Source of the DNA: Mobula hypostoma
Taxonomy: Eukaryota
Length of the DNA stretch: 64,000 bases
Reading direction: 5' to 3'
Assembly: GCF_963921235.1 (NCBI RefSeq)
Contig: NC_086107.1
Span: forward strand, 101,434,001 to 101,498,000
Below are positions 7,681 through 62,226 of the stretch, piece after piece (position 1 is the stretch's first letter; each line of letters begins with the position of its first letter). The notes beneath the pieces are model-generated. The model was not told the DNA's origin. It worked only from the letters and a program-made list of their open reading frames with translations, and searched no databases. The position numbers and the translations under genes are program-made.

Positions 7681-8231
7681 GTCAGTCCACAGCCTCCTCT
7701 ATTGTCACGATGGGGCCACACTCAGGTTGGAGGAACAACACCTTATATTCTGTCTGGGTAGCCTCCAATCTGATGGCATGAGCATCAATTTCTTGAATTT
7801 CCAGTAACTGCCCTTCCTTCTCTATTCCCCATTCCCATTTCCCTCTCTCACCTTATGTCCTTACCTGCCCATCACTTCCCTCTGGTGCTCCTTCCCCTCT
7901 TCTTTCTTCCATGGCCTTCTATCCTCTCCTATTAGATTCCCCCTTCTCCAGCCCTGGATCTCTTCCACCTATCAACTTCCCAGCTCTTTACTTCCCCCTT
8001 CCCCCTCCCGTTCCACCTATCACCTGCCACCTTCCTCCTCTCTCTACCCCCCCGCACCTTCATACTCTGACTTCTCCCCTTCTTTTCCAGTCCTGCTGAA
8101 GGGTCTCGGCCCAAAACATCGACTATTTATTCTTTTCCATGGATGCTGCCTGGCCTGCTGAGCTCCTCCAGCATTCTGTGCATGTTGCGTGGATTTCCAG
8201 CATCTGCAGACTTTCTCCTGTTTGTGATTTG
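7681..8231 (+). mobile_element. Penelope-like element 3' fragment
   Basis: LLYCHDGATLRLEEQHLIFCLGSLQ, then a pyrimidine-rich tract and the hammerhead module. 10-bp TSD AACACTAACT at 7671-7680 and 8232-8241. Confidence 0.85.
8089..8124 (+). ncRNA. Degenerate hammerhead motif
   Basis: AGUC-CUGCUGA-A-GGG-UCUCGG-CCC-AAAA-CA-UC-GACU. Stems kept, core mutated. Confidence 0.45.
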
Positions 8232-10550: not shown

Positions 10551-10829
10551 TGCTATTGATGTATTTGCAGCTGAAGGACAGGTATTTGAATGTCAAACGA
10601 TGTCGGAGGTATGATGAGGTGGGAATGTGAAGCTACAGCAGACCAACAGCCGCAGGACGATATTCCAGCTCCTGAGGTCGGTGGCCGCCTGCATCATCAT
10701 CATCATCATCATCAGGTACCGTGCCCAGTTTGAGCTCTGACTGCCATGGTCCACACACTCCTGTTTCAGGTCAAGTGGATCAATTCATTGTATTCATTTC
10801 CAGTTCTCTGGCTGCTGTCTCCATCATCA

Positions 10830-11627
10830 GAACACTCACAATGTGCTGGAGGAACTCAGCAGGTCAGTCAGCATCAGTTGAAAAGATTAGTCGACGTTTC
10901 GGGCCGAAACCCTTCGTCAGGACTGAAGGAAGAACTTTGGGGAGGGTTTGAAGAATGCTGGTAGTTGAAAAAAACAGTAATTTGAAAGACAAAGGGGTGG
11001 GGGAGAGGAAGCAGGGAGATGATTGGCAGGAGAACAATAGTAGAAGGAGGCAGAACTATGAGGGAGGTGATGTGAAATAGGGATAGAGGAAGGGAGGGGG
11101 AGGGAATTACCGGAAGTTGGAGAATTCTATGTTCATATCAAGGGGCTGGAGACTACCTAGACGGTATATGAGGTGTTGCTCCTCCAACCGGAGTTTAGCC
11201 TCATCATGGCAGTAGAGGAGGCCATGTATGGACATATCTGAATGGGAATGGGAAGCAGAGTTGAAGTGGGTGGCTACCGGGAGATCCTGTCTGTTGTGGC
11301 GGACTGAGTGGAGGTGCTCGACGAAGCGGTCCCCCAATCTGCGTCGGGTTTCACCGATGTAGAGGAGGCCGCACCGGGGGCACCGGATGCAATAGATGAC
11401 CCCAACAGATTCGCAAGTGAAGTGTTACCTCACCTGGAAGGACTGTTTGGGGCCCTGAATGGTGGCAAGAGAGGAGGTGTAGGGACAGGTATAGTACTTA
11501 CACTTACAGGGATAAGTGCCGGGTGGGAGATTCGTGGGGGTGGATGTGCGGATAAGTGAGTCGCGGGGGGATCGATCCCTGCGGAAAGCGGAGAGGGGTG
11601 GAGCGGGAAAGATGTGCTTAGTGGTTA
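10830..11627 (-). mobile_element. 5'-truncated Penelope-like element (GIY-YIG endonuclease C-terminus plus 3' hammerhead module) nested in an RTE
   Basis: Minus strand encodes ...VIYCIRCPRCGLLYIGETRRRLGDRFVEHLHSV...LRLEEQHLIYRLGSLQP (GIY-YIG). 13-bp TSD GTCTCCATCATCA at 10817-10829 and 11628-11640. Confidence 0.9.
10889..10924 (-). ncRNA. Minimal type I hammerhead ribozyme (Penelope-associated), intact
   Basis: Minus strand reads AGUC-CUGACGA-A-GGG-UUUCGG-CCC-GAAA-CG-UC-GACU: helix I AGUC/GACU, complete core, helix II GGG/CCC, loop-less palindromic helix III (ACGU), GUC cleavage triplet. Confidence 0.8.
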
Positions 11628-12123
11628 GTCTCCATCATCATTTGACTTTGTCTTCCTCCTGCTTTCTTCCCTTCAGTCTTTTCCATAATTACCGTGCATT
11701 CTAACTCCTCTTTCCTAATCACATGTCCAATAAAGTTACGTTGCCTTTCCGTGATCTCATACATTATTTCTCTTTCTGTGTTTGCTCTGTTCATGACATC
11801 CTCGTTAGATATTCGTTTCGTCCATGATATTCTTTGCATCCTCCTCAAAAACCACATCTCTGCTGCTACAATTCGTTTTCTCATGTTACTAGATATTGTC
11901 CAACATTCTGAGCCATATAACATAACTGGATAAACGTAACATTTCAGTATTCTGAGACGGATTGTCATGCCTAGTTTAGTATTGGTCAGTATACTCTTCA
12001 TTATCGTAAAGGTGTCTTTTGCCATCCCTATTCTTCTTTTGATGTCCCATGTCGCACCTGCCATCTGATGTCACCCAGCTTCCTGAGTTGCAAAAGTTCT
12101 GTACTTGTTTTATGTCGTCTGCA

Positions 12124-12274
12124 GCTGTCCCTTTAAAAGATCTGCCCTCGGTTCTGATTGGTGAAGTAAAGCTACGCCCCGACCGACGCCCCTCTCAGTG
12201 ATTGGATGTTGGTCACCCGCCCCCCCGATGATAACATTAGTCCCGCCCCTCCTGGCCTGGGTGTCTCGGTTGTC
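12124..12274 (+). promoter_or_regulatory. gcat proximal promoter / 5' UTR in a small CpG island extending through exon 1 to about 12700
   Basis: Two inverted CCAAT boxes (ATTGG at 12157-12161 and 12201-12205), two GC boxes (CCGCCC at 12217-12222 and 12243-12248), and high CpG density against a CpG-poor background. Confidence 0.7.
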
Positions 12275-12470
12275 ATGTTGTCGCGGAGGGTTGTGGCGGC
12301 GGCGGCTCGCCGGCTCTCCGGGATCGGCCGGCCCAGCAGTGCCCTGGTGCAGCTCAATGCGGTGCTGGAGGCCGAGCTAGAGCGCATCCGCGGGGCGGGC
12401 ACCTGGAAGAACGAGCGGGTCATCACCTCCCGGCAAGGGCCGCACATCAATGTGCAGGGCAGCGAGGGAG
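12275..12470 (+). CDS. gcat: gcat exon 1 (coding part, 196 nt): mitochondrial targeting peptide plus N-terminus
   Basis: ATG in context gtcATGt. Translation MLSRRVVAAAARRLSGIGRPSSALVQLNAVLEAELERIRGAGTWKNERVITSRQGPHINVQGSEG has an Arg-rich, acid-free leader and the KBL-typical ELxxIRxAGTWKxERVI motif. Donor GAG|gtaggc. Confidence 0.96.
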
Positions 12471-13799
12471 GTAGGCCCGACGGCGGGGGTGGAGGGAACG
12501 GGACCTACAAGGGGGGAGTGGACATTTGGGGGTGGGCGAGGCTCGGAGAGCGGGGCGTGGGGCTTGCGGGGCTGGGTACCGGGGAGAGGAAGTAAAGGTA
12601 AGATATTCTATAGGTCTGGGGCCAGTTGTTTTCAGGCCCCGGGGCTGGAGGCCGGGATTTGGGGTTGCAGAGCCCCGAGGCCAGGACAGAAGGTCTGGGG
12701 AGAGTATGTGGATAAGGCTTACAGCGGAGTGTTTTCGGGTGGGTATTATCATAGACAGGAGTATTGCCCCTCCAGGGTCTTGGTTCTGGTTCCATTTGAT
12801 GGAGCTGAATCATCACCACACAGGGGACCCTGCTGAGTATCTCACAGGCTGAAGATAACTTGCTTCGCATAGCTCCTTTCAGTGTGCTGCGGCTTGATGA
12901 TCGAGGTTGGGGTGTCTAGGTTCTGGAGTGGAGGTTCTCATTAGCTCCACTCCACAGTGGGAGATACACACACCAAGGAGAGAAGGGTGAAGGCAGGGAT
13001 TCCCAACATGGAGTCCACAGACCCCTTGCCTAATGGGGCATTGGTCTCTTGATGCAAGAGATTGCAGGTGCTGGATTCTGAAGCAATATATAAAGTTCAG
13101 TAGGTCCAGCAGAATCGATGCAGGGAAATGGACAGCTGATATTTCAGCTCAAGACCCTTCACCTAGATTGTGTGGGGGGGGGGGGTCTCAACCATTTTCA
13201 TGCCATGGACCCCTACCATCAACCGAGGTGTCCATGGACCCCAGATTGGGATCCCCTGGTCTAGACTGGTTCAAGTTTACAGGAAGGCATCAGTAACTTA
13301 AATAACCACAGTGATGTGCAGAAGAACATCTCTGAATGCACGACGTGTTGAACTTTGAAATGGATGGTCTATAGCAGCAAAAGACCATGAGCATACACTC
13401 AGTGGAATTTAATAAAGTGGTGTATACAGCATATGGTCCTTCTCTTCCCCGATCTGAGAGATGAAATTGTGAATCAGTAACCAAAATTCCTTTCCACCAA
13501 GTTTCAGAGGTCAGCAAGAAATCTGTCCGCCTCCAAGGCCTTGTGTTTTTTTCAGTTGTTTATAGCCTTTCCAGTTTTCCCTTGGTTGGTAGACGGCCAG
13601 CAAGATTGTACTGGATAGTTTGATGGGGTTTGCTGTCAATTTTGGAGTGTCGATAGACCTGAATGTTCTAGACTTGGTGACAATCAAGTTTATCATCAAA
13701 CTCAACCTGACCTTTCATTGTAATGGTAGAACAGGGCTTAGGTTAGTAATCCTGGTGTCAACCTCACCAGAGTTGGTGCTGTTGAACTAACTGCTGAGA

Positions 13800-14566: not shown

Positions 14567-14835
14567 GACACACACAAAATGCTGGTGGAACGCAGCAGGC
14601 CCAGCAGCATCTATAGGAAGAAGTACAGTCGACATTTCGGGCTGAGACCCTTCGTCAAGACTAACTGAAAGACGAGATAGTAAGAGATTTGGAAGTTGGA
14701 GGGGGGGGGAGATCCGAAATGATAGGAGAAGCCAGGAGGGGGAGGGATGAAGCTAGGAGCTGGAAAGTTGATTGGCTAAAGGGATACAAGGCTGGAGAAG
14801 GGTGAGGATCATGGGACAGGAGGCCTAGGGAGAAA
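14567..14835 (-). mobile_element. Penelope-like 3' module fragment
   Basis: Matches the reverse complement of about 32780-33030. Confidence 0.75.
14627..14662 (-). ncRNA. Degenerate hammerhead motif (C3 to U)
   Basis: Minus strand reads AGUC-UUGACGA-A-GGG-UCUCAG-CCC-GAAA-UG-UC-GACU. Confidence 0.5.
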
Positions 14836-15626
<791 letters not shown>

Positions 15627-18259: not shown

Positions 18260-20470
18260 AAGGGTCAAAGGTTAAAGTACCTTTATTATTATGTCACCAT
18301 GTACAACCCTGAGGCTTATTATCTTTCGGGAATACTCAATAAATCTATAGAGAAGTAACAAGTATAGAATGAATGAAAGACTACATCAGCTTGGTTGTTC
18401 AACCACTGTGCAAAAGACAACAAGCTATGCAAATACAAAAATAAAGAAATAATAATTAAATAATCACTGAATATCGATAATGTGAGATGAAGAATCTTTG
18501 AAGTGAGTCTATTTGTTTGGGATTTATGAGACTGGAATAATACCAGAAGAGATGAAAAAATCAGTATTTATCACTCTTCCTAAGAAACCTGGAGCAGTAG
18601 AATGTGAATCACATAGGACCATAAGTTTAATGAGTCATATCACCAAGATACTTCTAAGAATTTTGATGACAAGAGCTAAAAGTAAGATACAAGCTGAAAT
18701 AGGCAAGGAGCAATGTGGTTTTGTGAAAGACAAAGGTACAAGAAACGCAATATTGATGTTAAGGATACTATCAGAACGAGCTATTCAAGTGCAAAAAGAT
18801 TGTTTTATCGACTACACCAAAACATTTGATAAGGTGAAAAACAATAAGTTATTTGAAATACTACAGAAAACTCTTGATCTAGATTCGAAAGACCTCCGCC
18901 TAATTAGAAATCTTTACTGGAAACAAACTGCCGCTGTAAGAATAGATGGAGAAGTGAGTCAGTTTATGAAAATCAAGAGAGGTGTTAGACAAGGGTGTGT
19001 TTTCTCCCCGATTTGTTTAATGTGTACAGTGAAACAATATAAAAAATAAGAGACATCTTGGGAATCAAAGCTGGCGGTGAAAATATCAATAATTTCAGAT
19101 ATGCAGATGACACTGTGTTAATTGCAAGTACGGAGGAAGAACAACAAAACTTAATTGATATAGTTGTTGAAGAAAGTGCAAAAATGGGTCTATCTATCAA
19201 TTGCAAAAGGACAGAATATACGGTGATATCCAAAAAGAAGGAAAATCCTATCTGCAGGCTGAGAATAAATGGGGAAGACATAAAACAAGTACAGAAATTC
19301 TGCTACTTAGGAAGCTGGGTGACATCAAATGGCAAGTGTGACATGGACCTTAAAAGAAGAATAGGGATGGCAAAAGACACCTTTATGAGAATGAACAGTA
19401 TATTGACCAACATTAAACTAGGCATGACAACCCATCTCAGAATACTGAAATGTTACGTTTATCCAGTTATGTTATATGGCTCAGAATGTTGGACAATATC
19501 TAGTAACATGAGAAAACGAATTGTAGCAGCAGAGATGTGGTTTTTGAGGAGGATGCAAAGAATATCATGGACGAAACGAATATCTAACGAGGATGTCATG
19601 AACAGAGCAAACACAGAAAGAGAAATAATGTATGAGATCACGGAAAGGCAACGTAACTTTATTGGATATGTGATTAGGAAAGAGGAGTTAGAATGCACGG
19701 TAACTATCGGAAAGATTGAAGGGAAGAAAGCAAGAGGAAGACAAAGACAAATGATGATGGAGACAGCAGCCAGAGAACTGGAAATGAATGCCAATGAATT
19801 GATCCACTTGACCCGAAACAGGAGTGTGTGGGCCACGGCAGTCAAAGCTCAAACTGGGCATGGCACCTGATGATGATGATGATTTGTTTGGGAACATTTC
19901 AATGATGAGGCAAGTGAAATTATCCCCTTTGGTTCAAGAGCCTAATGGTTGAGGGATAGTAACTGTTCTGAAGCTGGTGGTGTGAGTCCTGAGGCTCCTG
20001 TACCACCTTCCTGATGGCAGCAGCGAGAAGAGGGCTTTACCTGTGATGGACTGGGCCGTATCCACTACTTTTTGTAGGATTTTCCATTCAAGGGTGTTGG
20101 TATTTCCATACCATGCTGTGATGTGGCCAGTCAATATACTCTCCACCTCACATTTATAGAAGTTGTTCAAAGTTTTAGATGTCATGCTGAATCTGCACAA
20201 ACTCCTAAGGAAGTAGAGGTACGGCAATACTGTCTTTGTAATTGCACTTGCGAGCGAGGCCCAGGACTGGTTCTCTAAAATAATAACACCGAGGAATTTA
20301 AAGTTGCTGACCCTCTCCTCCTCTGACCTTATGGCGAGGTGGCCCATGGAACCCTGGTTTCTACTTCCTGAAGTCAACAATCAGCTCCTTGATCTTGCTG
20401 ATGTTGAGTAAAAGGTTGTTGTTAAGGCACCACTCAGCCAGATTTTCAGTCTCATGCTGATTCATCACCA
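18260..20470 (-). mobile_element. Rex1/Babar-like fragment hosting the RTE insertion
   Basis: ORF 19934-20380 contains ERVSNFKFLGV...ESILTGHITAWYGN. The tail continues at 18260-18510 across the RTE TSD. Confidence 0.8.
18523..19881 (+). mobile_element. RTE-clade LINE, 5'-truncated (RT domain, frameshifted)
   Basis: ORFs 18513-19049 and 19058-19870 contain RTISLMSHITK, FIDYTKTFD, GVRQGC, RYADD and LYGSECW. (TGA)n tail. 12-bp TSD ATTTGTTTGGGA at 18511-18522 and 19882-19893. Confidence 0.93.
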
Positions 20471-20759: not shown

Positions 20760-21870
20760 GGCTGAAGGGATGTAACTAAGAGTATCCCAGGGACCAGTTC
20801 TTGGCCTCAGTTGTTCAGTGTTTGCGTAAGAGGAGGAAGGAAGTGTTAAGATTTCCAAGTTTGTCAATGAAATGGAAATGTGTGACAGGACATGTGATGA
20901 GGACATCATGAGACAGTAGCAGGGTATAGATAGATAGAGTGATCAGGTGAAAACCTGGCAAATAGTGCTGAATGTTGGAAGGTGCACGAACGACCCTACA
21001 CTTCAGTAAGAGGAATCAAAAGGCAGATCATTATCCTATTTGTACACTTTCTCCATTGAGTAAAGTTCAAAGGGGTCGAGGTGTTCTGGTGCATGAGTCG
21101 CAAAATATTAACAGGCAAGTCCAACAGTAGCTAAGAAGGGAACTGGCCTGTATGGATAGGGGTTGGATTTCAAGGATGGTGATGTTTTGTTAGTTGTACA
21201 GGGCATTGGTGTGACCACATTTGGACAATTTTCATCCCCTTCCCTACAAAAAGATACAGTAGCGTTGGAGGTAGTCGCAAGAAAAATTCATCAAGCTAAT
21301 TCCTGGGATGAGTAGGTTGCCAAATCAAAAGAAGTTAGACAGTCTGGGTCCTTGTTCCTATAAGTTTTGAAGAATGAGGGGTGATCTTATTCAAACATCC
21401 CAGATCCTAAGAGGGCTTCACACATCAAAATTGCTGGTGAACTCAGCAGGCCAGGCAGCATCTTTGATGTGTGTTGCTTGAATTTCCAGCATCTGCAGAA
21501 TTCCTCATGTTTGTGTCCTAAGAGGGCTTGACAGATTAGGTGTTGAGAAGTTCTCACTTACGGGGAAATTCATGAACTGGAAGGCATTACTGCAGAATGA
21601 GAATCTGGAAATTTAAAACTGAGAGGTGCAGGAATGTCTTCTCTTGAGAGGGTAGTGAATTTCTGGAATTCTCTGCCCGAGGGTGGTGAAGGTCAGATTA
21701 TTCGATATATTTAAAAGGGAGATGGATAAATATTGGCAAGATAATGGAACGGAAGCTTACAGAGAACTGGCACGGAAAAAGAGTTGAGGCCAGCATAGGT
21801 CAGCCATGATCATGTTGAAAGGTGGGTGAGGCTCGAGGGGCTCCCACTCTTGTTTGCTTGTTCTTGTATT
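20760..21870 (+). mobile_element. Old degraded CR1 RT/3' fragment
   Basis: Decayed homology to 55950-56950, including tccaagtttgtcaatga, ctggcaaat...aatgttggaaggtg and gggtagtgaatttctggaattctctgccc. Confidence 0.65.
21419..21515. mobile_element. 97-bp inverted mini-insertion of the Penelope 3' module inside an old CR1
   Basis: 14-bp TSD TCCTAAGAGGGCTT at 21405-21418 and 21516-21529. Confidence 0.85.
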
Positions 21871-23106: not shown

Positions 23107-25576
23107 GTGGGATATATACCATCTAAATACGCTATTTTATGTTGAAACCTTTTGTAGTGATATAACCTGCTGAAGAGTGAGCTTTCTGCTTTTCTGAGGT
23201 CCATTTGGAGAAATTTGTGATCGCAAGCTGAGACAAATTATTAATCTAAGTCAACTGCTGGGGTGAATTTTTAGATTTAGATTATGAAGACATGCAGTCC
23301 TCTTTTATCGTCATTTATTAATGCATGCATTAAGAAATGATAGAATATTTCCTCCGGTGTGATATCACAAAACACAAGACAGACCAAGACTGAAAAAAAC
23401 TAACAAATCCACATAATTATAACATATAGTTACAACAGTGCAACAATACCATAACTTGATGAAGAAGTCCATGAGCACAGTAAAAGTTCAAAGTCTCTCA
23501 AATGTCCCACATCTCACGCAGACGGGAGAAGGAAGAAAATCTCTCCTTGCCATACCCAACCACGGTCTGACTCTAAGTCATCCGAAAACTTTGAGCTCTG
23601 ATCAGCTTTCCGGCATTGAGTATTGAGCGCCATCTCTGTCCGAACAATTCGACCTCCATCTCGGTCGCCAACAGCAGGCAAAGCCGGGGATTTTGAGGCC
23701 TTCCCTCCGAAAGATTCCCAACCGCACAGTAACGACAGCAGCGAACGAGCGTTTCAGAAATTTTTCCAGATGTTCCTCTGTGCTTTCACGTCCATTCTCC
23801 GTCAAATCAGAATTGTCCATGGCCCCTATTTAACGGATACGATATCATTTTTCACCGGAGGGCTGCGCACGCGCGGTGTGCTGCTTCCCTCTCCTCCCGC
23901 TGTTTTTATTTTCAGTTGTGCAGGTTGGACACACTTTATCCTAGAATATGGCAATCAGTTGAGTTTGCATGCATCTGAAGCGCAATAGCAGCTGAGCAGA
24001 CAAACTGAGACACTGAAAACTAACTTAATTTAAGAGAGTTCTCACCTCTTTTGTCTCCTTCCCGGTTCTGGCAAAGGGTCTGCAACCTGAAACGTCATCT
24101 CTGTTTCTCTTCCCACTGACGTGGCTGACCTGCTGAGTATTTCAAGCATTTTCTGTTTTAGTTTTAAAACTAACTTGTTTTTGTCTCTATCACAATCCTC
24201 ACAAAGGATTCCGTCCTAAAACATTAATTGCTTCTCCCTCCTTAGATGCTGCGTGATCTGAGTGTTTCCAGGCGTTTCTGGGTTTGAGACTGAGAAGCTG
24301 CCTATACATGGCCTTGTGCAGGACAGTGCTTAGTTAACTCATTATCCCTACTTGAAGCCCCATGCTACTTCATCTTGTGCAGATATTTGATTAGAACATA
24401 GAACATAAAATAGTTCAATATAGACCCTTTGGCCCTTGTATTGTGCTGACCTTTTAACTTTAAGATCAATCTAATCCTTCCCTTCCACATAGCCCAATTT
24501 TCTTTCATTCATGTGCCTATCTAAGAGTCTCTTAAATGTCCCTATTATTATTATTATTATCATATTGTTATTAAAATACAGCATGTAATAGTCCCTTCTA
24601 GCCCTTCAAGCCACACTGCCCAACGACTACTGATTTAACCCTAGTCTAATCACGGGACAATTTACAATGGCAATTAACCTACCAATCAGTATGTCATTGG
24701 ACTGTGGGAGGAAACCCACACAGTCATGGGGATAACATACAATCTCCTTGCAGGCAACGGTGGGAATTGTACCCGGTTCGCTGGAATTGTAAAGCATTGT
24801 GCTAACCACTATGCTACCATGTGCCCATAAAACTTACTGTAAGATCAATCTAATCCTTCCCTCCCACGTAGCCCTCCATTTTTTTTTTTCATTCGTGTGC
24901 CTATCTAAAAATCTCTTAAATGTCCCGTGTGTCTGCATCTACCACCACCTCGGCAGCGCGTCCCACTGATTGTTCTGTCCCTGACGGCCTCTCTGAACCT
25001 GTGTGGTTCTCACCAGTGCCAAAGTGAGCCATTTCTTGTGGCAAGTAGGCAGGTAACTAGTTAATATTTTTAAGCTAGCTGGTGTACAGAATAACAATGC
25101 AGGCTGGTAGAAGATGAGAACAGTTTCTGTTAAGTGACAAATTTCTATGATCGTTCATCTGAAAGAGCAGGAGCAGATTCAACAAGTACCTACAAATGGG
25201 AATTGGATTTGTATTGCTGGGAGTAAAAGTGATCCCAGTGTTATTAAGAACTGCTATTGCTTTTCCAGTCTATTGTTCATTTACATTCTAATCCTGTTCT
25301 AGGTGAAATTGCAGTATTTTGAAAAATGAGGTGGTTGGACTTGTTCAAACATACATTAACCTCACCCTGGGATTGTAACCTTTTACTTTTATTGGCTTTA
25401 AGCATATAAATTCATTGGTTACAGGCTTATAAAAAGCATCACCCATCAAGTCCTGTGGGATCTCCTTCCTTGAGAAATATGTCCTTTGATAGCTGGAACT
25501 GTACGTGTGAGCAGTCAGAATCTTGGCCGCTACATTGTGGGCGGGGGGGGGGGGTTGTTGCAGCTGACTATTGGGC

Positions 25577-29476: not shown

Positions 29477-31012
29477 GTGAGTGCCTGGGCCAGGGACACA
29501 ACTGAAAAGCAGAGGCATTGTGTTATAAATTAATTTCAGACCATGGTGAGATCATACGGAATACTGCACGTATCCAGCCTCTAATTATATCAAGGAGCTG
29601 GAAAAGATGCAGGAAGGGTTCATCAGCATTCTGCCATTTCTAAGTCTAAACCTATTGAAACTAATCACTAGGCTTGGCTGAATTCTCCAAGACAGAATTT
29701 GACAAAGGGGTAGGGAAAGTAAATAATTACTCACCAGTCCAATAGTGGCTTCTCAATACTCACAGTGGTACAGACTTTCTTTATCACAGGGAGTGGTAAA
29801 GGATTATTTAAGGAGATTACCAGATATGGATGCCAGGGAGGGAGGAATAGAAGGCTATTCTGTTGGTTTGAGCTAAAGGGAGGGCAGGGCATGAAGTCAG
29901 TGATGTAAAGTTGGGTGGGTGGGGACAGATGGTGCAACATCAGCATTGACCAGCTGTACTCAGCGGCCTCTCTCTAAGCTCCAAATCCTCCATAAATGGT
30001 GCCCCACCCATCTGCTTCCCGATTCGATACGACGGTGTCTTATCTTTTTTTCGCAGCCCCAAGAGATTCTGCAGATGCTAAAAATATCAAGCAACACGCA
30101 CAATGTGCTGGAGGAACTCTGCAGGTCAGACAGCATCTATGGAGGGGAATAAACGGTCAACGTTTTGGACCGGACTGCCGTAGATTCCCCACCATAGTTG
30201 CTGCCCGACCTGCTGAGTTTTGTGTGTGTTGCAGCACCGCTCTATTAACCCCAAATCCCACACTTTTCTTAAAATGCAACTATCAGTCGATTTCTGGAAT
30301 ATACTGAGCTTCTGGGGTGCTACCGCTGATTACTACTCACCAGGAAAAGAAATTACTCACTTCAGTTCTGAGTGACTGACCCCATGTTATGAGCACCCAG
30401 CCAGGTGAAGTATCATCATGCACCCGTGGAATGTTGTAGTCTTAAATGTGATCTGCTTAATCTTTCCTCATGGGACAAGACTCCATCCCAGAATTCCTTC
30501 TTTGTACTCCTCTATCACAAGTGTATTCTCTCTGAAGAAAGACCAGACCTATACAAGTTATTCAATCCATGGTCTCACCGGAGTCCATTGTAACTGGAGC
30601 ACGATTTTGTTCCTCATACAAAATCCTTTAGCAGTAAGGGTAATATACAGTTCAACTTCCTAGTCCTCTGTTCTATCTGCAAGTTAACTTTCAGTGTGCA
30701 TGTGAGGACACCTAGTCCCTCTGACTGAAACCAGTTTCAATCTCTCACCATTTAAAAATATCCTACTTTTCTATTTTTTTCTTCCTGGAAGTGGATAACC
30801 TCACACTTTCAGAACTGCTGTGTCCAGGTGGGCATCTGTTAGCTTTTGTGCGAGGGGTGGGGGTTTGTGAGTTTTGTCCCTTTTTCTTTTTTGTACAGCG
30901 GTGGGGGGTTTAATGGTTGAGGACTTCTTTTCTTTCAAGGACTTCCATGGTTTTTCTGTATTTTGTGGCTATCTGGAGAAGACTAATCTCAGAGTTGTAT
31001 TCTGCGTACATA

Positions 31013-32457: not shown

Positions 32458-33070
32458 GGCAGGATCTCCCAGTGGCCGCACATTTTAATTCCATGTCCCA
32501 TTCCCATTCTGTCATGTCTATCCACGGCCTCCTCTACTGTAAAGATGAAGCCACACTCAGGTTGGAGGAACAACGCCTTATATTCCGTCTGGGTAGCCTC
32601 CAACCTGATGGCATGAATATTGACTTCTCTAACTTCCGCTAATGCCCCACCTCCCCTCATACCCCATCTGTTATTTATTTATATATACACACATTCTTTC
32701 TCTCTCTCTCTCTCTCTCTCCTTTTTTCTGTCCCTCTCACTATACCCCTTGCCTATCCTCTGGGTTCCCCCCCCCCTTCCTTCTCCCTGGGCCTCCTGTC
32801 TCATGATCCTCACATACCCCTTTTGCCAATCACCTGTCCAGCTCTTGGCTCCATTCCTCCCCCTCCTGTCTTCTCCCATCATTTTGGATCTCCCCCTCCC
32901 TCTTTCAAATCTCTTAGTAGCTCTTCCTTCAGTTAGTCCTGACGAAGAGTCTCGGCCCGAAACGTCAACTGTACCTCTTCCTAGAGATGCTGCCTGGCCT
33001 GCTGCATTCACCAGCAACTTTGATGTGTGTTGCTGGAATTTCCAGCATCTGCAGAATTCCTCATGTTTGT
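32458..33070 (+). mobile_element. Penelope-like element 3' fragment (gcat intron 6)
   Basis: Same GIY-YIG C-terminus (DLPVAAHFNS...LRLEEQ), (CT)n tract, hammerhead module and shared 3' tail. Confidence 0.85.
32935..32970 (+). ncRNA. Minimal hammerhead ribozyme motif, core intact, one mismatch each in helix I and helix II
   Basis: AGUC-CUGACGA-A-GAG-UCUCGG-CCC-GAAA-CG-UC-AACU in the 3' part of a Penelope-like fragment. Confidence 0.6.
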
Positions 33071-34564: not shown

Positions 34565-35535
34565 ACCACCCCACTAGCCTCCGTGTCTAGTACATAATTC
34601 TCCGTAACTTCCTCCATCTCCAATGGGATCCCATCGCCGAACACATCTTTCCACACTTTCTGCTTTCCCCAGGGATTGCTCCTTGTGGGACTCCCTTGTC
34701 CACTCATTCCTCCCCATTGATCTCCCTCCTGTAACTTAGCCTTGCAAGCACAGCAAGTGCCACACCTGCCCCTACACCCCCTCTCACACTACCCTTCAGA
34801 GCCCCAGTAGTCCTTCCAGGTGAGGCCACACTTCACCTGTGAGTCTGTTTGGGTCATCCTGGTGCTGCGGGTGTTGCTTTCTGTATATCGGTGAGCCCCG
34901 ACGTAGATTGGGAGACCACTTCGCCAAGCACCTTCACTCTGTCCACCAGAAAAAGCATAATCTCCCAGTGGCCACCCATTTCAATTCCACTTCCTATTCC
35001 CATTCTGACATGTCAGTCCATGGCCTCCTCTACTGCCACAATGAGGCCACACTCAAGTTCGAGGAGCAACACCTTGTATTCCTTCTGGGTAACCTCCAAC
35101 CTGAAGGCATGAACATTGATTTCTCCAACTTATGCTCATTTGCCCCCCGACCCCACCTTCACCGTTCCCCATTCCTGATTCCCTCTCTCATATTATCTCC
35201 TCACCTGCCCATCACCTCCCTCTGTTGCCTCTCCTATCAGATTCCCCCTCCTCCGGCCCTGATCTCGTTCACCAATCAACTTCCAAGCTCTTTACTTCAC
35301 CCCTCCCCTCTCCTCTCCCAGTTTCACCTATCACCTTCCATCTTGTACTACTTCCTCTCCTCCCCCATATTCTTACCCTGACTTCTCCCCTTCCTCTCCA
35401 TTCCCGATGAAGGTTCTCAGCCCAAAACATTGACTGTGTACTCTTTTCCATTGATGCTGCCTGACCTGCTGAGTTCCTCTGCAACATTTTGTGTGCTCTG
35501 GTTTTCCAGCACCTACAGGTTTTCTCATGTTTCTG
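34565..35535 (+). mobile_element. Penelope-like element fragment (gcat intron 7)
   Basis: ORF 34839-35381 contains LYIGEPRRRLGDHFAKHLHSV...LPVATHFNS...EEQHL. Degenerate hammerhead near 35400-35435. Confidence 0.85.
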
Positions 35536-38715: not shown

Positions 38716-39144
38716 ATTCAATTAATTCCACTGAAACAGTTACCACATTTTTGAGGTTCAGTTGTATGTCTTACATCATCAGCAATGATCGTTCAACAAC
38801 ACTTTATATAAATGCACCATTTTCTTTCAATTTGACTTGATCTTTTCCAGCTCTGTTGTTATTTTGTACCACTGGCTACTCATTGTCATGTCAAGATTCC
38901 CAGTTTATGCAGTCTTTCCCTGTTCACTTCTTTAGGAACCCTCCCTACAAACTGCTGCAGCAAAGCTAACTTGCATTACTCAGTCTGTTGTAACAAAAAC
39001 AGTAAATGCTTGCAACAGTTAGGTCAGGCAACATCAGTAGGAAGAAAACTAATGCTTGAGTGGGATACCTTGTCAGAAATGCAGAGCAAGTGATTTGGTG
39101 GGGGCATTTACATGAACTGTTACCTTTTAGAGATATCCCCTTTA

Positions 39145-40232: not shown

Positions 40233-40787
40233 CCTTTGTCCTACCCAACCCTCTCAACCTTCGCTACTGAAAACTAACTTCTTTTCTCTCATTTCTTTTT
40301 CTGACTATGGCCTCCACACCTGAAATGTTACTGGTTTCTCTTTCCACAGATACTGCCTGACCTTTTGAGTGTTTCCTGTCTGTTCTGTTTTTATTTGGAG
40401 CTCCAGCATTTTGATTTTCATTCACTGAGTCAGCTCCCTGCCATCTGATTGGTCTTTCCATCAGGGCCTTGAATGCCAGGATTTCAGCAGGGTTGTTGGA
40501 CGTGGCCTTCCAGACTGGAGTGGGAGTTAAATCCACTCCTTTGGTTTGTTTTGAATTGAGTGGGCTTCTGTACTTCAGAGACTGAAGGATAGATTAACCA
40601 GGTTAGCCACATCGTTCCTCTGAGTCAACCCCATGCTGGCTGATCAGAATCTTCCAGCAAAGATTCAGCTGGCTTTATCCTCTGCAGCAGGATTTGATGA
40701 CGTACACACTGTAATTATCAGGAAATACTTCCCTATCCAGGATTTGTTAAGCCAATCTAATATTCAGCTTGTCTTTCCTTTCCTCAG

Positions 40788-41160: not shown

Positions 41161-41360
41161 GGAACATGAGATCCTGCAGATGTTAGAAATCTAGAGCAAA
41201 ACACACAGGAACTCAGCAGGTCAGGCATGAGCAATGGAAAGGAATAAACAGTCATTTAATGTTTCAGACTGAGACCATTCATCAGATTCTCAGCCTGAAA
41301 TGTCGACTGTTTACTCCTTAACATAGATACTACCTGACTTTCTGAGTTCTTCCAGCACTT
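41161..41360. mobile_element. Fold-back Penelope 3' module insertion downstream of the gcat stop
   Basis: Inverted arms. 10-bp direct repeat TGAGTATTTG at 41151-41160 and 41361-41370. Confidence 0.7.
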
Positions 41361-44754: not shown

Positions 44755-45295
44755 ATAATCTGCAGATGCTGGGGTCAAAGCAACACTCACAACACGCTGG
44801 AGGAACTCAGCAGGTCGGGCAGCATCCGTGGAAATGATCAGTTGACGTTTTGGGCCGGAACCCTTCGTCAGGACTGTAGGGGGAAGGGGCAGAGGCCCTA
44901 TAAAGAAGGTGGGGTAAGGTGGGAAGGAGAAGGCTGGTAGGTTCCAGGTGAAAAACCAGTAAGGGGAAAGATAAAGGGGTGGGGGCGGGGAAGCAGGGAG
45001 GTGATAGGTAGGAAAGGTGAAGAAAGAATAGGGGAAAACACAATGGGTAGCAGAAGGAGGCGGAACCATGAGGGAGGTGATAGGCAGCTGGGGGAGGGGT
45101 AGAGTGACATAGGGATAGGGGAAGGGAGGGGAGGGAATTACCGGAAGTTGGAGAATTCTATGTTCATACCAAGGGGCTGGAGACTACCTAGACGGTATAT
45201 GAGGTGTTGCTCCTCCAATCTGAGTTTAGCCTCATCATGGCAGTAGAGGAGGCCATGTATGGACATATCTGAATGGGAGTGGGAAGCGGAGTTAA
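44755..45295 (-). mobile_element. Penelope-like element 3' fragment
   Basis: ORF 45138-45326 is nearly identical to the 11107-11337 peptide. Flanking direct repeat TTTCATTAACACACA at 44740-44754 and 45311-45325. Confidence 0.85.
44840..44875 (-). ncRNA. Degenerate hammerhead motif (GAAA changed to AAAA)
   Basis: Minus strand reads AGUC-CUGACGA-A-GGG-UUCCGG-CCC-AAAA-CG-UC-AACU. Probably inactive. Confidence 0.5.
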
Positions 45296-47744
45296 CATTG
45301 CTTAACTCTGTTTCATTAACACACACTCACAGGATTAAATTCCATCTGTTATAACCCTGCCCAGTTTACCAACCACTCAGTATTACCTAGTGGCCCAGGT
45401 TCGATCCTGACCTTCGGTACTATCTGTATGGAGTTTGCATTTTCTCTCTGCAGTAATATGTGTAATATACAGTTTGTATAGGGATTACTCAGTATGTATT
45501 CACATGTATAGGTACCTTCAGGGTGGACTTTGAGATGTTTTTACAGCTGGAAGAATCTTGAAAAGGAGGAGCTGTGGATCCAAAGATGAACCGGAGGTCT
45601 GGGGTAGAAGGAGTAGAGAGGGTTGGAGAACAGCTGGGCATCACTGGTTGGGTCAAAGAGCCAGGTAATCCCTTGCCTGCTGCAGCCCCTGAGGATGGGC
45701 AACGGGCTTCAGATACTCGTTCAGCGCCCAATACCCTGTTGTTCCCCCCAAGTGTTGTCTGCCCCCCCAGCTGGGGGTGGGGGGAGGGTTGGGGTGTGGG
45801 GAGTTTATTCTGCCCTTCCACACACACAGTTCACCTGTCATCCCCACCAGATGCTTGAGTCTGGAGAGAGTTGGTGTCCAGCACAGATCTGGAGGCTTCC
45901 TGAGTATCTGTGCTTCACACCAACATCTGCATCCCATCCCTTTGTACGATCGGAGAGTCAGAACACAGAAACAAGTCTTTGGCCCATCTATTCCATGACG
46001 GCCTGGTTCTCTGCCTAGTCCCACCTACCTGCACCTGGACCATAGCCCTCCGTGTCTCTGCCATCTATGTACCTGTCCAAGCTTCCCTTCAGTGTTCCAA
46101 CTGAACCCATATCCACTGGCAGCTCATTCCACACTCTCACCACTCCCTGAGTGAAGATCCCCCTCAGATTCACTTTAACATTTCACCTTTCACCCCAAAC
46201 TAATGACTTCTCATTCCAGTCTCACCCAACCTGACAGGAATTAGCCTGCATCCATTTATCCTATCTATACCCCTCATAATCTTGTACGCCTGTGGTGTAA
46301 AGAGGCAGGCAAGGGGTAGGTGCTCACCCTTGGTCCCTCACAGACTTAAACCCTCATGGGCGGTGACAGGAAAGCAGAGAGCTGCAGGCACTGGAAATCT
46401 GAGCTAAACAGCAGAAAGCACCAGCGATGCACGTCAGGCCAGGCAGCGCCTGAGGAGAGAGAAGGATCAGTGAGTGTCCTGCGTTGATGGCCCTTTATTA
46501 GAACTTTGAGGAATCTTCAGCAGGCTGACAGGGGGCTGGGAGGAAACACAGGAGCCTTCAATAAAATAGTTCTGCTTCCTTTGTGAACAGCTGTGGCTCC
46601 TGATCAATGAAACATCTGCAGAGGAGGTGGGGGTTTGTAGAATACATCCCGGAGAGCAAGCATGGAAAATGGTGGGCTGAATGGCCTCCTGACTTGTGTC
46701 ACTCTAAGATTTCAGGTGCTGGGGTTGACTTGGTTGGCAGTGAAGTCTCTGCCTCTAACCCAGCAGAACCACCAGGCTCTCAACAGCTCTGGTGACACTT
46801 GAGAGTGAGAGACAGGGAAACTGGTTGAAATGCAAAGGTGGTAACCTGCAGGGTTCGATTGGTCAGCAAGAGCAGATCAGTGCTTGCGTGAATGGAACTG
46901 GGCAGCTGTGGAATGGACTGGGGTCACAGCTGGAATTCCACAAAGTAAAACAGAAAAAGCTGGAGATACCCGTCAGGTTGGACAGCATCTGTAGAGAGGG
47001 AAACCGTTAATGTTTTCAACTTGAAACGTTAATTCTGCCTCTCTCTGTCCATGGATGCTCTCAACTTGCGGGATATTCCCTGTTCTTAGTTCCTGACTCT
47101 TAACAGAAAATCTACAGATGCTGGAAATCAAAGTAATACACGCAAAATGCTGGAGGAACTCAGCAGGCCAGGCAGCATCCTGCAGAGTTCCTCCAGCATT
47201 TTGTGAGTATTTCTCCGAACAGTGGGACGTACATCATTAACCCTAAAGAGCCATGCGACTACGTGAGCAGCGTGAGTATCAGACCAGAAACGCATTGAAC
47301 ATACAACTAGAAATGGAGCCAAATTCCCTAACATTACTTTAAATAAGAACACCAGATGTTAATGTTGCATTTGTTCTGACCCAACTATATTTATCTATAG
47401 GTGTGACTGAGGGTCCAGTCCCTGTCTGTGTGAGTACAATGATCAGTTCCACACCACTTGGCCTGTAATATAATAGATGCTGTTCTGGTTTTGTCTAATC
47501 AGCTGACTCAAACCCTTCACTGTACCAATACACTCAGTGGAAATGGATTAGGGGCTGCTTTCTTCTTCAAAGATTCCTGCTGTAACTGTACACCCTTGTG
47601 TCTTTACTGCCTAATGGTTTTCTAATGGGGGTCCTGGGTTTATGGAAAGCTTTTCATACTCTAAGAGAATTTAGTTGCGTCATCGGTGTGGGTGTCACCA
47701 GTCTTGGGGTCATCAACCACCTGTTACTGATCTGGTTGTCACCG

Positions 47745-49044: not shown

Positions 49045-49595
49045 GACACGAGAAAATCTGCTGAAGCTGGAAATACAAAGCAACACACACAAAATGCTGG
49101 AGGTACTCAGCAGGTCAGGCAACCTGTATGGAAAAGAGTAAACAGTTGATGTTTTGGGCCCAGACTCTTCTTCAGTACTGAGAGGGAAGTGGGGAGGTGC
49201 CTGAATTAAAAGGTGGGGTGAGGGGAAAGAGGCTAGCATAAGAGGCTAGATAGGTGAAGCCAGGTGGGTGGGAAAGGTCAAGGGCTGGAGAAGAAAATCT
49301 AATAGGAGAGGAGAGTGGACCAAAGGAGAAAGGGAAGGAGGAGGAGGGTCAGGAGGGAGGAATAGGCAGGTGAGAAGGAGTTAAAGGTCTGAGTGGGGAA
49401 TAGAGGAGGGGGGAGAATTTTGTTCACCAGAAGGAAAGATCGTTATTCATACCATCAGGTTGGAGTCTACCTGGATGGAATATAAGGTGTTACTCCTTCA
49501 CCCCGAGGGTGGCCTCACCTTGGCACAAGAGGAGGCCATGGATCAACACTTCAGAATGAGAATGGGAATTGGAATTAAAATGTTTGGTCACAGGT
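49045..49595 (-). mobile_element. Penelope-like element 3' fragment
   Basis: HFNSNSHSHSEVLIHGLLLCQGEATL plus the same 3' module with a decayed hammerhead. Confidence 0.75.
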
Positions 49596-50810: not shown

Positions 50811-51014
50811 AACACCAGGAATTCTGCAGATGCTGGAAAGTCAAGCAACACACATCAAAGTTGCTGGAGAACGCAGCAGGCCAGGCAGCATCTCTAGGAG
50901 GAGGTACAGTTGACGTTTTGGGCCGATGAAGGGTCTCGGCCTGAAACGTCGACTGTACCTCTTCCTAGGGATGCTGCCTGGCCTGCTGCGTTCACCAGCA
51001 ACTTTGATGTGTGT
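50811..51014. mobile_element. Fold-back mini-insertion of the Penelope 3' module
   Basis: Two inverted copies of the module with arms of about 75 bp. 13-bp TSD AGCAGCAAATGAA at 50798-50810 and 51015-51027. Confidence 0.85.
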
Positions 51015-52954: not shown

Positions 52955-55900
52955 CAGAGTCAGAATCAGGTTCAATATCACCGGCATATGTCGTGAAATT
53001 TGTTAACTTTCTGGCGGCAGTACAATGCAATACGTAATAGAAAAAATCTGAATTACAGTAAGTATATATATATGTATTAAATAGTTAAATTAAATTAGTG
53101 CAAAAAAAGAAATTAAAAAATAATGAGGTAGTGTTCATGGATTCGATGTCCATTCAGAAATCGGATGGCAGAGGGGAAGAAGCTGTCCCTGAATCACGGA
53201 GTGTGTGTCTTCAGGCTTCTGTACCTCTCCCTGATGGGAGCAATGAGACGAGGGCATGTCCTAGGTGATGAGGGTCCTTAATGATGGACGCCGCCTTTCT
53301 GAGGCATCGCTCCTTGAAGATGTCCTTGATACTACGGAGACGAGTGCCCATGATGGAGCTGACCGAGTTTACAACTCTCTGCAGCTTACTTCAATCCTGT
53401 GCAGTCGCCCCCTCCCACCCCCCGCACCAGCCAGTGATGCAGCCAGTCAGAATACTCTCCACAGTACGTCTGCCGAAATTTGCGAGTGTTTTTGGTGACA
53501 AACCAAATCTCTTCGAATCCCTAATGAAATTGAATTGAATTGAAATGAGTTTATTACTTACATCCTTCATATACATGAGGAGTAAAAATCTTTACGTTAC
53601 GTCTCTGTCCAATTGTGAAATGTGCATTTATAGTAATTTATAATAAATATTATGTACCACAGGATAATCAACATAACAGAAATACAGTTGCGTTAGTCTG
53701 ATGGCCTGGTGGAAGAAGCTGTCCTGGAGCCTGTTGGTCCTGGCTTTTATGCTGCGGTACCGTTTCCCGGATGGTAGCAGCTGGAACAGTTTGCGGTTGA
53801 GGTGACTTGGGTCTCCAATGATCCTTCGGGCCCTTTTTACACACCTGTCACTGTAAATGTCCTGAATAGTGGGAAGTTCACATCTACAGATGTACTGGGC
53901 TGTCCGCACCACTCTCTGCAGAGACCTGCGATTGAGGGAAGCACAGTTCCCATACCAGGCAGTGATGCAGCCAGTCAGGATGCTCTCAATTGTGCCCCTG
54001 TAGAAAGTCCTTAGGATTTGGGGGCCCATACCAAACTTCTTCATCCGTCTGAGGTGAAAGAGGCGCTGTTGTGAGTGGTGGTAAAAATCTTCCGAGGTGT
54101 ATATATTTCAATGCTAGGAGTATTGCCGGGAAGGCGGATGAGTTGAGGGCGTGGATTGACACGTGGAATTATGACATTATAGCAATTAGTGAAACTTGGC
54201 TACAGGAGGGGCAGGACTGGCAGCTTAATATCCCAGGGTTCTGATGTTTCAGATGTGATCAAGGCAGGGGAATGAAAGGTGGGGGAGTAGCATTGCTTGT
54301 TAGGGAAAATATTACAGCAGTGCTCAGGCAGGACAGATTAGAGGGCTTGTCTACTGAGTCCTTATGGGTGGAGCTGAGAAACAGGAAAGGTATGGCCACA
54401 TTAGTGGGATTGTATTACAGACCACCCAATAGTCAACGAGACTTGGAAGAACAAATCTGCAGAGAGATAGCAGGCAACTGCAGGAAACATAAAGTTGTGG
54501 TGGTAGGGGATTTTAATTTTCCATACATTGATTGGGACTCCCATACTGTTAGGGGTCTAGATGGTTTAGAGTTTGTAAAATGTGTTCAGGAAAGTTTTCT
54601 AAATCAATATATAGAGGGACCAAGTAGAAGGGATGCAATATTGGATCTCCTGTTAGGAAACAAGTTAGGACAAGTGACGGAAGTCTGTGTAGGGGAGCAC
54701 TTTGGTTCCAGTGATCATAACACCATTAGTTTCGATTTGATCATGGACAAGGATAGATCTGGTTCTAGGGTTGAGGTTCTGAACTGGAAGAAGGCCAAAT
54801 TTGAAGAAATGAGAAAGGATCTAAAAAGAGTGGATTGGGACAGGTTGTTCTCTGGCAAGGATGTGATTGGTAGGTGGGAAGCCTTCAAAAGAGAAATTTT
54901 GAGAGTGCAGAGTTTGTATGTTCCTGTCAGGATTAAAGGCAAATTGAATAGGAATAAGGAACCTTGGTTCTCAAGGGATATTGCAACTCTGATAAAGAAG
55001 AAGAGGGACTTGTATGAAATGTATAGGAAACAGGGAGTAAATCAGGTGCTTGAGGAGTATAAGAAGTGCAAGAAAATACTTAAGAAAGTAATCAGGAGGG
55101 CTAAAAGAAGACATGAGGTTGCCTTGGCAGTCAAAGTGAAGGATACTCCAAAGAGCTTTTACAGGTATATTAAGAGCAAAAGGATTGTAAGGGATAAAAT
55201 TGGTCCTCTTGAAGATCAGAGTGGTTGGCTATGTGTGGAACCAAAGGAAATGGGGGAGATCTTAAATAGGTTTTTTGCGTCTGTATTTACTAAGGAAACT
55301 GGCATGAAATCTATGGAATTGAGGGTATCAAGTAGTGAGATCATGGGAACTGTATAGATTGAAAAGGAGGAGGTGCTTGCTGTCTTGAGGAAAATTAAAG
55401 TGGATAAATCCCTGGGACCTGACAGAGTGTTCCCTTGGACCTTGAAGGAGACTAGTGTTGAAATTGCGGGGGCCCTGGCAGAAATATTTAAAATGTCGCT
55501 GTCTACGGGTGAGGTGCTGGAGGATTGGAGAGTGGCTCATGTTGTTCCATTGTTTAAAAAAGGATCGAAAAGTAATCCGGGAAATTATAGGCCGGTGAGT
55601 TTAACGTCGGTAGTAGGTAAGTTATTGGAGGGAGTACTAAGAGACAGAATCTACAAGCATTTGGATAGACAGGGACTTATTAGGGAGAGTCAACATGGCT
55701 TTGTGCGTGGTAGGTCATGTTTGACCAATCTATTGGAGTTTTTCGAGGAAGTTACCAGGAAAGTGGATGAAGGGAAGGCAGTGGATATTGTCTACATGGA
55801 TTTCAGTAAGGCCCTTGACAAGGTCCCACATGGGAGGTTAGTTAGGAAAATTCAATCGCTAGGTATACATGGAGAGGTGGTAAATTGGATTAGACATTGA

Positions 55901-60850: not shown

Positions 60851-61127
60851 CGCCCCCCATTGTGGACAGTATTTTATAAACTCAGTGTAGAAGCTCCCCA
60901 CCCGACTGCCAGGATGAGGCACACAAGAAGTCACCAGCCAGATGAACCAAAGGGCTGTACCGTCACAAGCCAGAGGGAGGCCGGCCCTGAACGGAGTGAA
61001 CGGTTACAACTCTGCCACCACTTCCACCCCAAGCGCAGCTGTTTCCTGGAGATAAACCTGTGTTAAACCTGCCACACACACAACAGGGTATTCATTGCAG
61101 ATGACCTCACCACAAGTCATTGCTGGG

Positions 61128-61383
61128 GCGCGCGCGCACACACACACACACACACACGCACACGCATACACACACACGCATACACACACACGCACACACA
61201 CACATACACACGTATACACACACACACACACACATACACACACACGCATACACATACACATACACACACACGTATACACACACACACACACACATACACA
61301 CACACGCATACACACACACACACACACACGTATACACACACACACACACACATACACACACACGCATACACATACACATACAC

Positions 61384-61416
<33 letters not shown>

Positions 61417-61445
61417 TACACACACACACACAGACGTATACACAC

Positions 61446-61477
<32 letters not shown>

Positions 61478-62180
61478 GCATACACACACACGCACACACA
61501 CACACATACACACACGTATACACACACACACACACGTATACACACACACGCACACACACACACACACATACACACACACGCATACACATACACACACACA
61601 CGCATACACACACACACACACGCATACACACACACGCACACACACGTACACACACACACACATACACACACACGTACACACACACACACATACACACACA
61701 CGCATACACATACACATACACACACGTATACACACACACACACACACATACACACACACGCATACACACACACACGCATACACATACACACACAAACACA
61801 CACACACACAGATGTATACACACACACGCACACACACACACACACGTATACACACACACATACACATACACACACACACATACACACACACACACACAGA
61901 TGTATACACACACACGCACACGCACACACACACACACACACATACACACACACGCACACACGCACACACACACACACATACACACACACGTATACACACA
62001 CACACACGTATACACACACGCACACACACATACACACACACGCATACACATACACACACACACACACGTATACACACACACACACACGTATACACACACA
62101 CATACACATACACACACACACACACATACACACACACACAGACGTATACACACACACGCACACACACACACACACACACG

Positions 62181-62224
<44 letters not shown>
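61128..62224. repeat. Compound (CA)n microsatellite of about 1.1 kb with CATA/CGCA/CGTA variants
   Basis: Direct observation of an almost uninterrupted purine-pyrimidine alternation. Confidence 0.98.

Positions 62225-62226
<2 letters not shown>

Follow-up and report, generated by a model that had tools for sequence, protein, structure and literature searches.

The window analyzed in this work is a 64-kb stretch of the genome of Mobula hypostoma (contig NC_086107.1, positions 101,434,001 to 101,498,000 of the forward strand), and all coordinates below are counted from its first letter. It contains gcat, a gene of nine exons on the plus strand (12275-40936) whose best protein match comes from Mobula. 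Beside the CpG island, ~650 bp ahead of the start codon of gcat and on the strand opposite to the gene, lies an inserted Penelope-like element (PLE) that carries a hammerhead motif. The features of this region are the following.

10700..12070, minus strand: host LINE fragment, RT-bearing, interrupted by the element (flank identity to a paralogue)
10817..10829, no strand: target-site duplication (TSD), 3' copy, 13 bp (flank comparison)
10830..11627, minus strand: whole insertion, a 798-bp 5'-truncated EN+ Penelope-like element, typed as Neptune on indirect support (TSD, empty-site joint)
11628..11640, no strand: TSD, 5' copy, 13 bp (flank comparison)
11107..11627, minus strand: 3' part of the RT-EN ORF (ORF, Pfam, 75-89% identity to ray proteins)
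10925..11106, minus strand: pyrimidine-rich spacer (3' UTR or pseudo-LTR); the sister copy at 44840 has a longer one
10889..10924, minus strand: minimal type I hammerhead motif (strand reading, descriptor, published consensus)
10830..10888, minus strand: conserved 59 nt 3' of the ribozyme, up to the "short" 3' end
12275..12472, plus strand: gcat exon 1 (2-amino-3-ketobutyrate CoA ligase), CpG island; not part of the element

The CpG-island promoter of gcat has CCAAT-like boxes near 12157 and 12201; the putative RNA runs give no cover at 12140-12199, upstream of the gene, which is no evidence either way. Elsewhere in the window we observed a fragment of a Tc1/mariner-type DDE transposase in gcat intron 1 (14851-15399, plus strand; DDE_3, E 1.3e-18), a long LINE ORF2 with endonuclease and RT that is interrupted by a few stops (54245-56728, plus strand), and a degenerate CA/TG microsatellite of ~1.2 kb (61050-62300) that is the source of spurious mir-297 Rfam matches and of long pseudo-ORFs.

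The ends of the insertion are well defined. The element sits in a LINE fragment, which we take to be RTE-like, and an uninterrupted paralogue of this LINE is present near 19323-19883 (plus strand; RVT_1 by Pfam, E 2.1e-6), to which the flanks of the insertion are identical at 422 of 443 and 110 of 118 positions. The empty-site joint, from 10816 to 11628 with 13 shared letters, was found in contigs of three of the four public sequencing runs, and loose contig ends occur at 10831 in all four. The 3' end of the insertion lies 63 nt past the predicted cut site. The focal copy, cleanly bounded by a TSD, shows that reading of the cDNA that was integrated had continued across the ribozyme cut site.

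From 5' to 3', what is left of the RT-EN ORF comprises the end of the thumb, a Cys linker, an in-frame stop, a GIY-YIG endonuclease with its CCHH residues, and the terminal stop at 11107. The RT core is cut off; in ray relatives, a YIDD-type motif lies upstream within one ORF. The first-pass annotation had placed the hammerhead behind the end of a GIY-YIG ORF and the profile search agrees (PF01541, E 3.4e-5, 24.5 bits vs a cut-off of 22.6), with 187 nt between the terminal stop and C3 of the hammerhead. The closest relatives of the endonuclease are Hypanus and Mobula proteins (P0001-P0005, 75-89% identity). Residues C279, C282, H301, and H323 of the CCHH set are invariant or nearly so in the protein alignment, and GIY-YIG alone was reported by Pfam in four of four ray relatives. 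Pieces of the element ORF are also contained in three ray gene models (P0001, P0002, and P0018, annotated as DIPK1C, mucin-2, and ABHD14A isoforms), which are probably annotation artefacts.

The ray relatives have a complete C-x3/4-C-x2-C linker, which matches the CX2-5CxxC pattern expected between RT and EN, and the second Cys of this linker is changed in the focal copy. According to the account of the clades in Craig et al. 2021 (PMC8557442), a Cys linker marks Neptune or Nematis and is absent in Poseidon. The linker and a match to an Acropora Neptune motif (see below) give indirect, sequence-based support to a Neptune-type rather than a Poseidon-type element; the choice between Neptune and Nematis rests on the same two observations. 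Other traits of EN+ PLEs are present, namely a hammerhead in the pseudo-LTR (pLTR), an optional tail (30-40 bp in the published description), and inverted 5'-truncated partners (cf. Fig. 2 of PMC8557442). Among the copies matched by nhmmer in the 64-kb window, none has two pLTRs in a full or partial tandem.

The hammerhead is composed of the following parts, all on the minus strand.

10924-10921/10892-10889: helix I, 4 bp, AGUC/GACU
10920-10914: core CUGACGA
10913: extra unpaired A before helix II
10912-10909/10904-10901: helix II, with a UUCG loop
10900-10897: GAAA
10896-10895: palindromic CG replacing helix III
10894-10893: UC before the predicted cut

Our reading of the strand from 10924 to 10889 reproduces the 36-nt motif of the first-pass annotation letter for letter. 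The predicted cut between 10893 and 10892 is also correct, as C17 is 10893, and so is the loop-less self-complementary helix III, represented by the palindromic CG. The 3-bp helix II of that annotation was wrong: it has 4 bp, GGGU/GCCC with one U-G pair, and a UUCG tetraloop. The strand reading and the descriptor both give the CUGANGA ... GAAA ... NUH core of minimal hammerheads (min-HHRs). One unpaired base separates position 9 from 10.1, the G10.1-C11.1 pair is present (G10912-C10901), and the motif fits the >80% min-HHR consensus that PMC4209133 gives as its Fig. S3.

A relaxed hammerhead descriptor gave two matches in the 64-kb window, the focal site and a weak site at 10830 with a 13-nt helix III. 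The same descriptor gave a mean of 0.06 matches over 100 approximate dinucleotide shuffles, with any match in 5 of the 100. The Rfam covariance-model search found no hammerhead among its 18 matches with E<=5, and the focal 36-mer does not fold better than shuffles (z -0.96). These last two results count in favor of a chance look-alike within a repeat. Such a look-alike is hard to reconcile with the rarity of descriptor matches in shuffled DNA, and it is refuted by the motifs found at the same position, with covarying stems, in distant relatives, so that we give it practically no weight. Rfam is blind to the ray motifs, and annotation therefore overlooks them, as had been anticipated.

These distant relatives come from a protein-alignment scan of metagenomes that confirmed 452 loci, and the best 80 of them (32-50% protein identity) were retained. 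When the stems were required, a sense motif was found behind the endonuclease in 15 of the 44 loci with 500 nt of room, and an antisense one in none of the 44. When the core was searched for without stems, 28 of the 48 loci with room had one in sense, at 84-169 nt from the endonuclease on its 3' side, and 3 of the 48 had one in antisense. The three inner pairs of helix I are kept in 28, 27, and 23 of these 28 cores, the four pairs of helix II in 28, 28, 26, and 26, and the palindrome 15.2-16.2 is Watson-Crick in 21; the 28 cores are not independent, since 23 belong to one family. The stems and core of this main family are those of the Acropora digitifera motif typed as Neptune in the entries of Table S1 of PMC4209133. 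A different arrangement was observed at L018:2030 (minus strand), where a hammerhead with a true palindromic helix III insert and a 6-bp helix I, of canonical or retrozyme type, lies antisense to a Penelope-like ORF. Inverted second min-HHR copies are found near the element at L036:2289, L041:4593, and L063:308 (all minus strand), which is the usual inverted-partner arrangement.

Covariation was scored on 14 hand-picked motifs, made up of 5 window copies and 9 of the 28 metagenome loci and covering all five families. The score is 0.60 in this set, vs 0.25 when shuffled (none of 500 shuffles reaches it) and at most 0.10 when slid, and 84% of the pairing cells are paired vs 69% in shuffles. All five helix I pairs of the 14 motifs have two-sided changes, whereas the G10.1-C11.1 pair is invariant in all 14. 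The core and its place behind the endonuclease are conserved while the helices covary. This supports the assignment to the minimal type I hammerheads of PLEs, thought to work as dimers, and the link to the GIY-YIG ORF, as the first-pass annotation had it. The proposal that helices I and II covary holds across distant families; within the ray copies of the window, decay alone is seen. For this reason, function in rays rests on the distant relatives. Searches of viral contigs returned no match to the family-specific motif pattern, three pattern matches and no confirmed one for the ray RT-EN protein, and 47 loci for the generic hammerhead core pattern.

Much of this is in line with published systems. 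Cervera & De la Peña 2014 (PMC4209133) described min-HHRs in the pseudo-LTRs of metazoan PLEs, with thousands per genome (~4,000 in coelacanth and ~9,000 in X. tropicalis), and large dispersed populations are the main message of their account. There, the Schistosoma motif is uncleaved as a monomer and weakly cleaved as a dimer or trimer. The min-HHRs presented in that paper share with the ray motif a U-rich flank, a short helix I, CUGANGA followed by one unpaired base, the G10.1-C11.1 pair, a loop-less palindromic CG, and a NUH site, and they too are mostly single 3' motifs on truncated elements. The ray helices AGUC/GACU and GGGU/GCCC are new as a sequence family, and no chondrichthyan motif is among those that we examined in its Fig. 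S3. The A. digitifera Neptune (BACK01051917, Table S1 of PMC4209133), whose motif is that of the main family among the protein relatives of the focal element, shares the core CUGACGAA, a 4-bp helix II with tetraloop, and CGUC; its helix I has 3 bp (GCU/AGC) vs 4-5 bp in the ray, its spacer ~100 nt vs 187 nt, and protein identity is 40-58%. The Neptune-type element of the ray carries a min-HHR of a new sequence family, while the class, the abundance, and the dimer idea are already in print. Our literature searches, whose results were judged in part by title, found no paper on the ray copies.

Animal non-LTR retrozymes were reportedly described by Cervera & de la Peña in 2020. A preprint of Li, Clavereau & Pollet (2026) presents them as PLE-derived repeats with type I hammerheads and counts them in the sole chondrichthyan sampled. 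Retrozymes are non-coding, repeated in tandem, and carry two or more intact motifs. We rejected this identity for the focal copy, which has a single intact motif, retains ORF remains, and is bounded by a TSD.

The window contains other copies of the element, listed here from left to right.

8089..8124, plus strand: decayed copy; insertion ~7681-8231, 10-bp TSD, endonuclease remnant
14627..14662, minus strand: decayed copy with C3U and a broken palindrome, short tail
21419-21515, no strand: head-to-head mini-insertion, long and short tail, 14-bp TSD
24058..24155, plus strand: old divergent copy, motif plus tail
~30060-30235, no strand: head-to-head mini-insertion, long and short tail, TSD none found
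32935..32970, plus strand: copy with intact core, broken 2.1-1.1 pair, and a mismatch in helix II; sense orientation within a gcat intron
35400..35435, plus strand: decayed copy; sense, in a gcat intron
41161..41360, no strand: head-to-head mini-insertion of the same design as at 50811..51014, 10-bp TSD
44840..44875, minus strand: decayed copy, belongs to the subfamily of the focal copy, 15-bp TSD
~47100-47213, no strand: head-to-head mini-insertion, long and short tail, TSD none found
49144..49179, minus strand: decayed copy
50811..51014, no strand: head-to-head mini-insertion, arms truncated inside the ribozyme, long and short tail, 13-bp TSD

An ungapped scan of the window gave seven further copies within 11 mismatches. 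The nine other coordinates at which decayed copies had been named all match motif plus tail (nhmmer, E 8e-19 to 2e-5). There is an additional match at 30174, and weak or tail-only matches occur at 13171, 21463, 24192, 39101, 40303, 46999, and 47201. We also observed divergent motif-plus-tail relics at 24058-24155, 24192-24271, 39020-39101, 40274-40406, 46930-47015, and 13094-13170, which probably belong to other Penelope-like families. The copies are indeed decayed: none of the six other full-length motifs is intact, and the core is broken in five of them and kept in the sixth, at 32935. The idea that they represent mostly non-coding elements needs a qualification: they are 5'-truncated relics of a coding element rather than a non-coding family of their own, with endonuclease remnants upstream in six. 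Of the 12 insertions searched, 6 gave TSDs of 10-15 bp and the other 6 gave none. A fifth helix I pair is present as C...G in the copies at 35400, 44840, and 49144 and as U...G in those at 14627 and 32935; it is missing in the focal copy and at 8089.

In the six other full-length copies, CpG cells are changed in 18 of 60 cases (16 of deamination type) vs 14 of 156 for the other cells, and five of these 14 are at a single loop position, at which it is the focal copy that deviates. This concentration of changes on CpG points to neutral decay after insertion. Along the focal copy, the rows listed contain at least 15 differences that are private to it or nearly so, none of them in the motif, and the resulting private divergence of ~2% is a lower bound. 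At 2%, the probability that 36 nt remain unchanged is ~0.5. The core of the focal copy is thus likely to be whole because the copy is young, not because it is selected.

One may nevertheless ask if the host has kept it, the ribozyme acting on an antisense RNA transcribed upstream from the promoter of gcat, ~1.3 kb away. It is the sole intact motif among seven full-length copies and it is sense to the divergent transcript of a CpG-island promoter. In addition, a putative RNA run from a related species contains a 143-nt contig that is identical to 10862-11004 and reaches 31 nt past the cut site, while the same species has 8 differences over 342 nt at the promoter; if the contig is orthologous and neutral, 0 in 143 has a probability of ~0.035. 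However, this contig may be a unitig common to many young copies (the summed depth at 10940-10999 exceeds 2e5 in DNA runs), or DNA, and it carries no strand information. A young subfamily explains the match, and a dead relic has no need of it. The ORF with a stop, the helix I of only 4 bp, and the predicted rod fold (see below) also argue against retention, and youth accounts for intactness with P ~0.5. We find retention by the host extremely unlikely and keep to youth as the explanation.

The spacer upstream of the motif suggests another possibility. In six of the seven full-length copies, an AG opens helix I (10923-10924) behind the pyrimidine tract, and GT donors are found near the stop codon (11092-11156, minus strand). 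The pyrimidine-rich spacer might accordingly be a retained spliceosomal intron whose acceptor provides the first two bases of helix I, in which case splicing would alter the ribozyme; an intron of the D. virilis Penelope, as shown in PMC4209133, does end at helix I. Yet a U-rich 5' flank belongs to the general min-HHR consensus of that paper, the coral-type relatives have no AG there, and a GT..AG joint ending at 10923 is not among the 15 listed of 470 joints. An intron at this place seems to us quite unlikely, and we treat the tract as UTR or pLTR spacer.

The 3' ends of the copies are informative on how they were made. Copies terminate at either of two 3' ends ~35-45 nt apart, the longer one corresponding to the optional tail. 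The sites named near 41290 and 50925 are real, and each consists of two inverted truncated arms. In all five head-to-head minis, three of which have a TSD, a long-tail arm is paired with a short-tail arm, which suggests priming from both strands of a staggered cut at different RT start sites. Six of the 10 short arms mapped start inside the motif, at positions -1 to 26 (50918/50926, 41285/41288, 30175, and 47015), and none of the 10 starts at the cut site after position 32. More precisely, in two minis one arm extends to the start of the core and the other stops at loop II. Finally, every copy of the window that has a 3' end extends past the cut site, so the templates were presumably uncut or re-ligated.

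A close parallel is the Poseidon element PAc of Anolis carolinensis, in the experiments of Frangieh et al. 2024 (PMC11167929). Its hammerhead cleaves only with the element protein, uncut RNA is the main template, cutting and extension affect both DNA strands, and the optional PLE tail arises from the use of two internal RT start sites. Like the ray element, PAc has a C-terminal GIY-YIG and a hammerhead near the pLTR end, its two start sites downstream of the hammerhead recall the two 3' ends of the ray copies, and its uncut template recalls copies that run past the cut site. It differs in clade, as Poseidon is described without a Cys linker (PMC8557442) and the ray relatives carry one, and in its ORF, which begins within the ribozyme, while the focal ray core CUGACGA has no AUG. 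An ORF start inside the ray ribozyme is unsupported, as four of the seven full-length copies read CUGACGA or UUGACGA.

The absence of arms starting at the cut, together with arms starting in the motif, makes a structural role conceivable. The ray motif could be a vestige, or a structural signal such as a protein docking or RT pause site, that does not cleave even in active elements. Besides the copies that pass the cut site and the position of the short arms, this would fit the reported Anolis core mutants, with insertion unaffected and no reads ending at the cut site among the data presented (PMC11167929), and the single dimer of nine from Xenopus that cleaved in vitro in the account of bioRxiv 10.64898/2026.07.22.740005. 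It fits poorly with a core and NUH site kept at 32-50% protein identity while the stems covary, with Anolis cleavage that depends on C3-G8 in the presence of protein (PMC11167929), and with the weak cleavage of Schistosoma dimers and trimers (PMC4209133). We regard a non-cleaving motif as unlikely, though far from negligible, and favor a ribozyme that cleaves under certain conditions.

The first-pass annotation had called the ribozyme intact. Its core is complete, which does not make it active. In a folding model that leaves out Mg2+ and tertiary contacts, the monomer is predicted to form a rod of -11.9 kcal/mol in which GACG pairs with CGUC and buries the core. In the same model, the active dimer is disfavored (-14.7 kcal/mol; two rods give -23.8 and the best co-fold gives -28.7). 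Since helix III consists of the palindrome ACGU alone, it would form just between two copies, or with the help of the element protein, and the 64-kb window has no second intact motif that could serve as a partner in cis. Cleavage by hammerhead dimers has reportedly been described by Lünse et al. On the basis of these predictions, the focal copy alone is likely inactive, a passenger without partner, and would cut RNA only together with a second copy or the element protein.

We infer from these elements that the motif is a conditional and slow RNA-processing element of an active tandem parent. Such a parent would produce a tandem transcript with two hammerhead motifs, which, once paired, would slowly cut after GUC, trimming and perhaps circularizing the RNA of the element. 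For the focal insertion, the endonuclease would have made a staggered cut of ~13 nt, reverse transcription would have begun at an internal position of the RNA, using the nearer of its two start sites, passed an uncut or re-ligated ribozyme, and halted after ~800 nt. Overall, our main reading, to which we give a probability of about 85%, is that of a minimal type I hammerhead in the pseudo-LTR of a Neptune-type PLE, borne by a 798-bp 5'-truncated and TSD-bounded copy that is likely a dead passenger.

Some 10 motif-bearing copies in 64 kb correspond to one per ~6 kb. The summed contig depth of the motif relative to unique gcat is 3.9e5 and 6.4e4 in two DNA runs, ratios that are not copy numbers and are sixfold apart. 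They make the very large genome-wide population proposed earlier plausible, and we consider 10^4-10^5 or more relics likely; the existence of such populations has been in print since 2014. Judged by density in the 64 kb, the number in the ray is likely higher than the ~4,000 motifs of coelacanth and the ~9,000 of X. tropicalis. One could go further and propose that rays hold the largest known ribozyme population (10^5+), that sense copies act as split ribozymes on host RNA, and that selection purges intact sense-intronic copies. With a self-complementary helix III, two sense copies, whether within the same pre-mRNA or on separate transcripts, would complete each other, and both full-length sense copies inside gcat (32935 and 35400) are broken, with the sole intact copy outside the gene. 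Taken jointly, these propositions are very unlikely.

Hammerheads in the pLTRs of Penelope elements and their large dispersed populations were already published, and the focal copy adds little in kind. What rays bring is their copy number, which lets the role of the ribozyme be tested statistically, from the strand bias in introns, the 5' ends, and the use of RT start sites.
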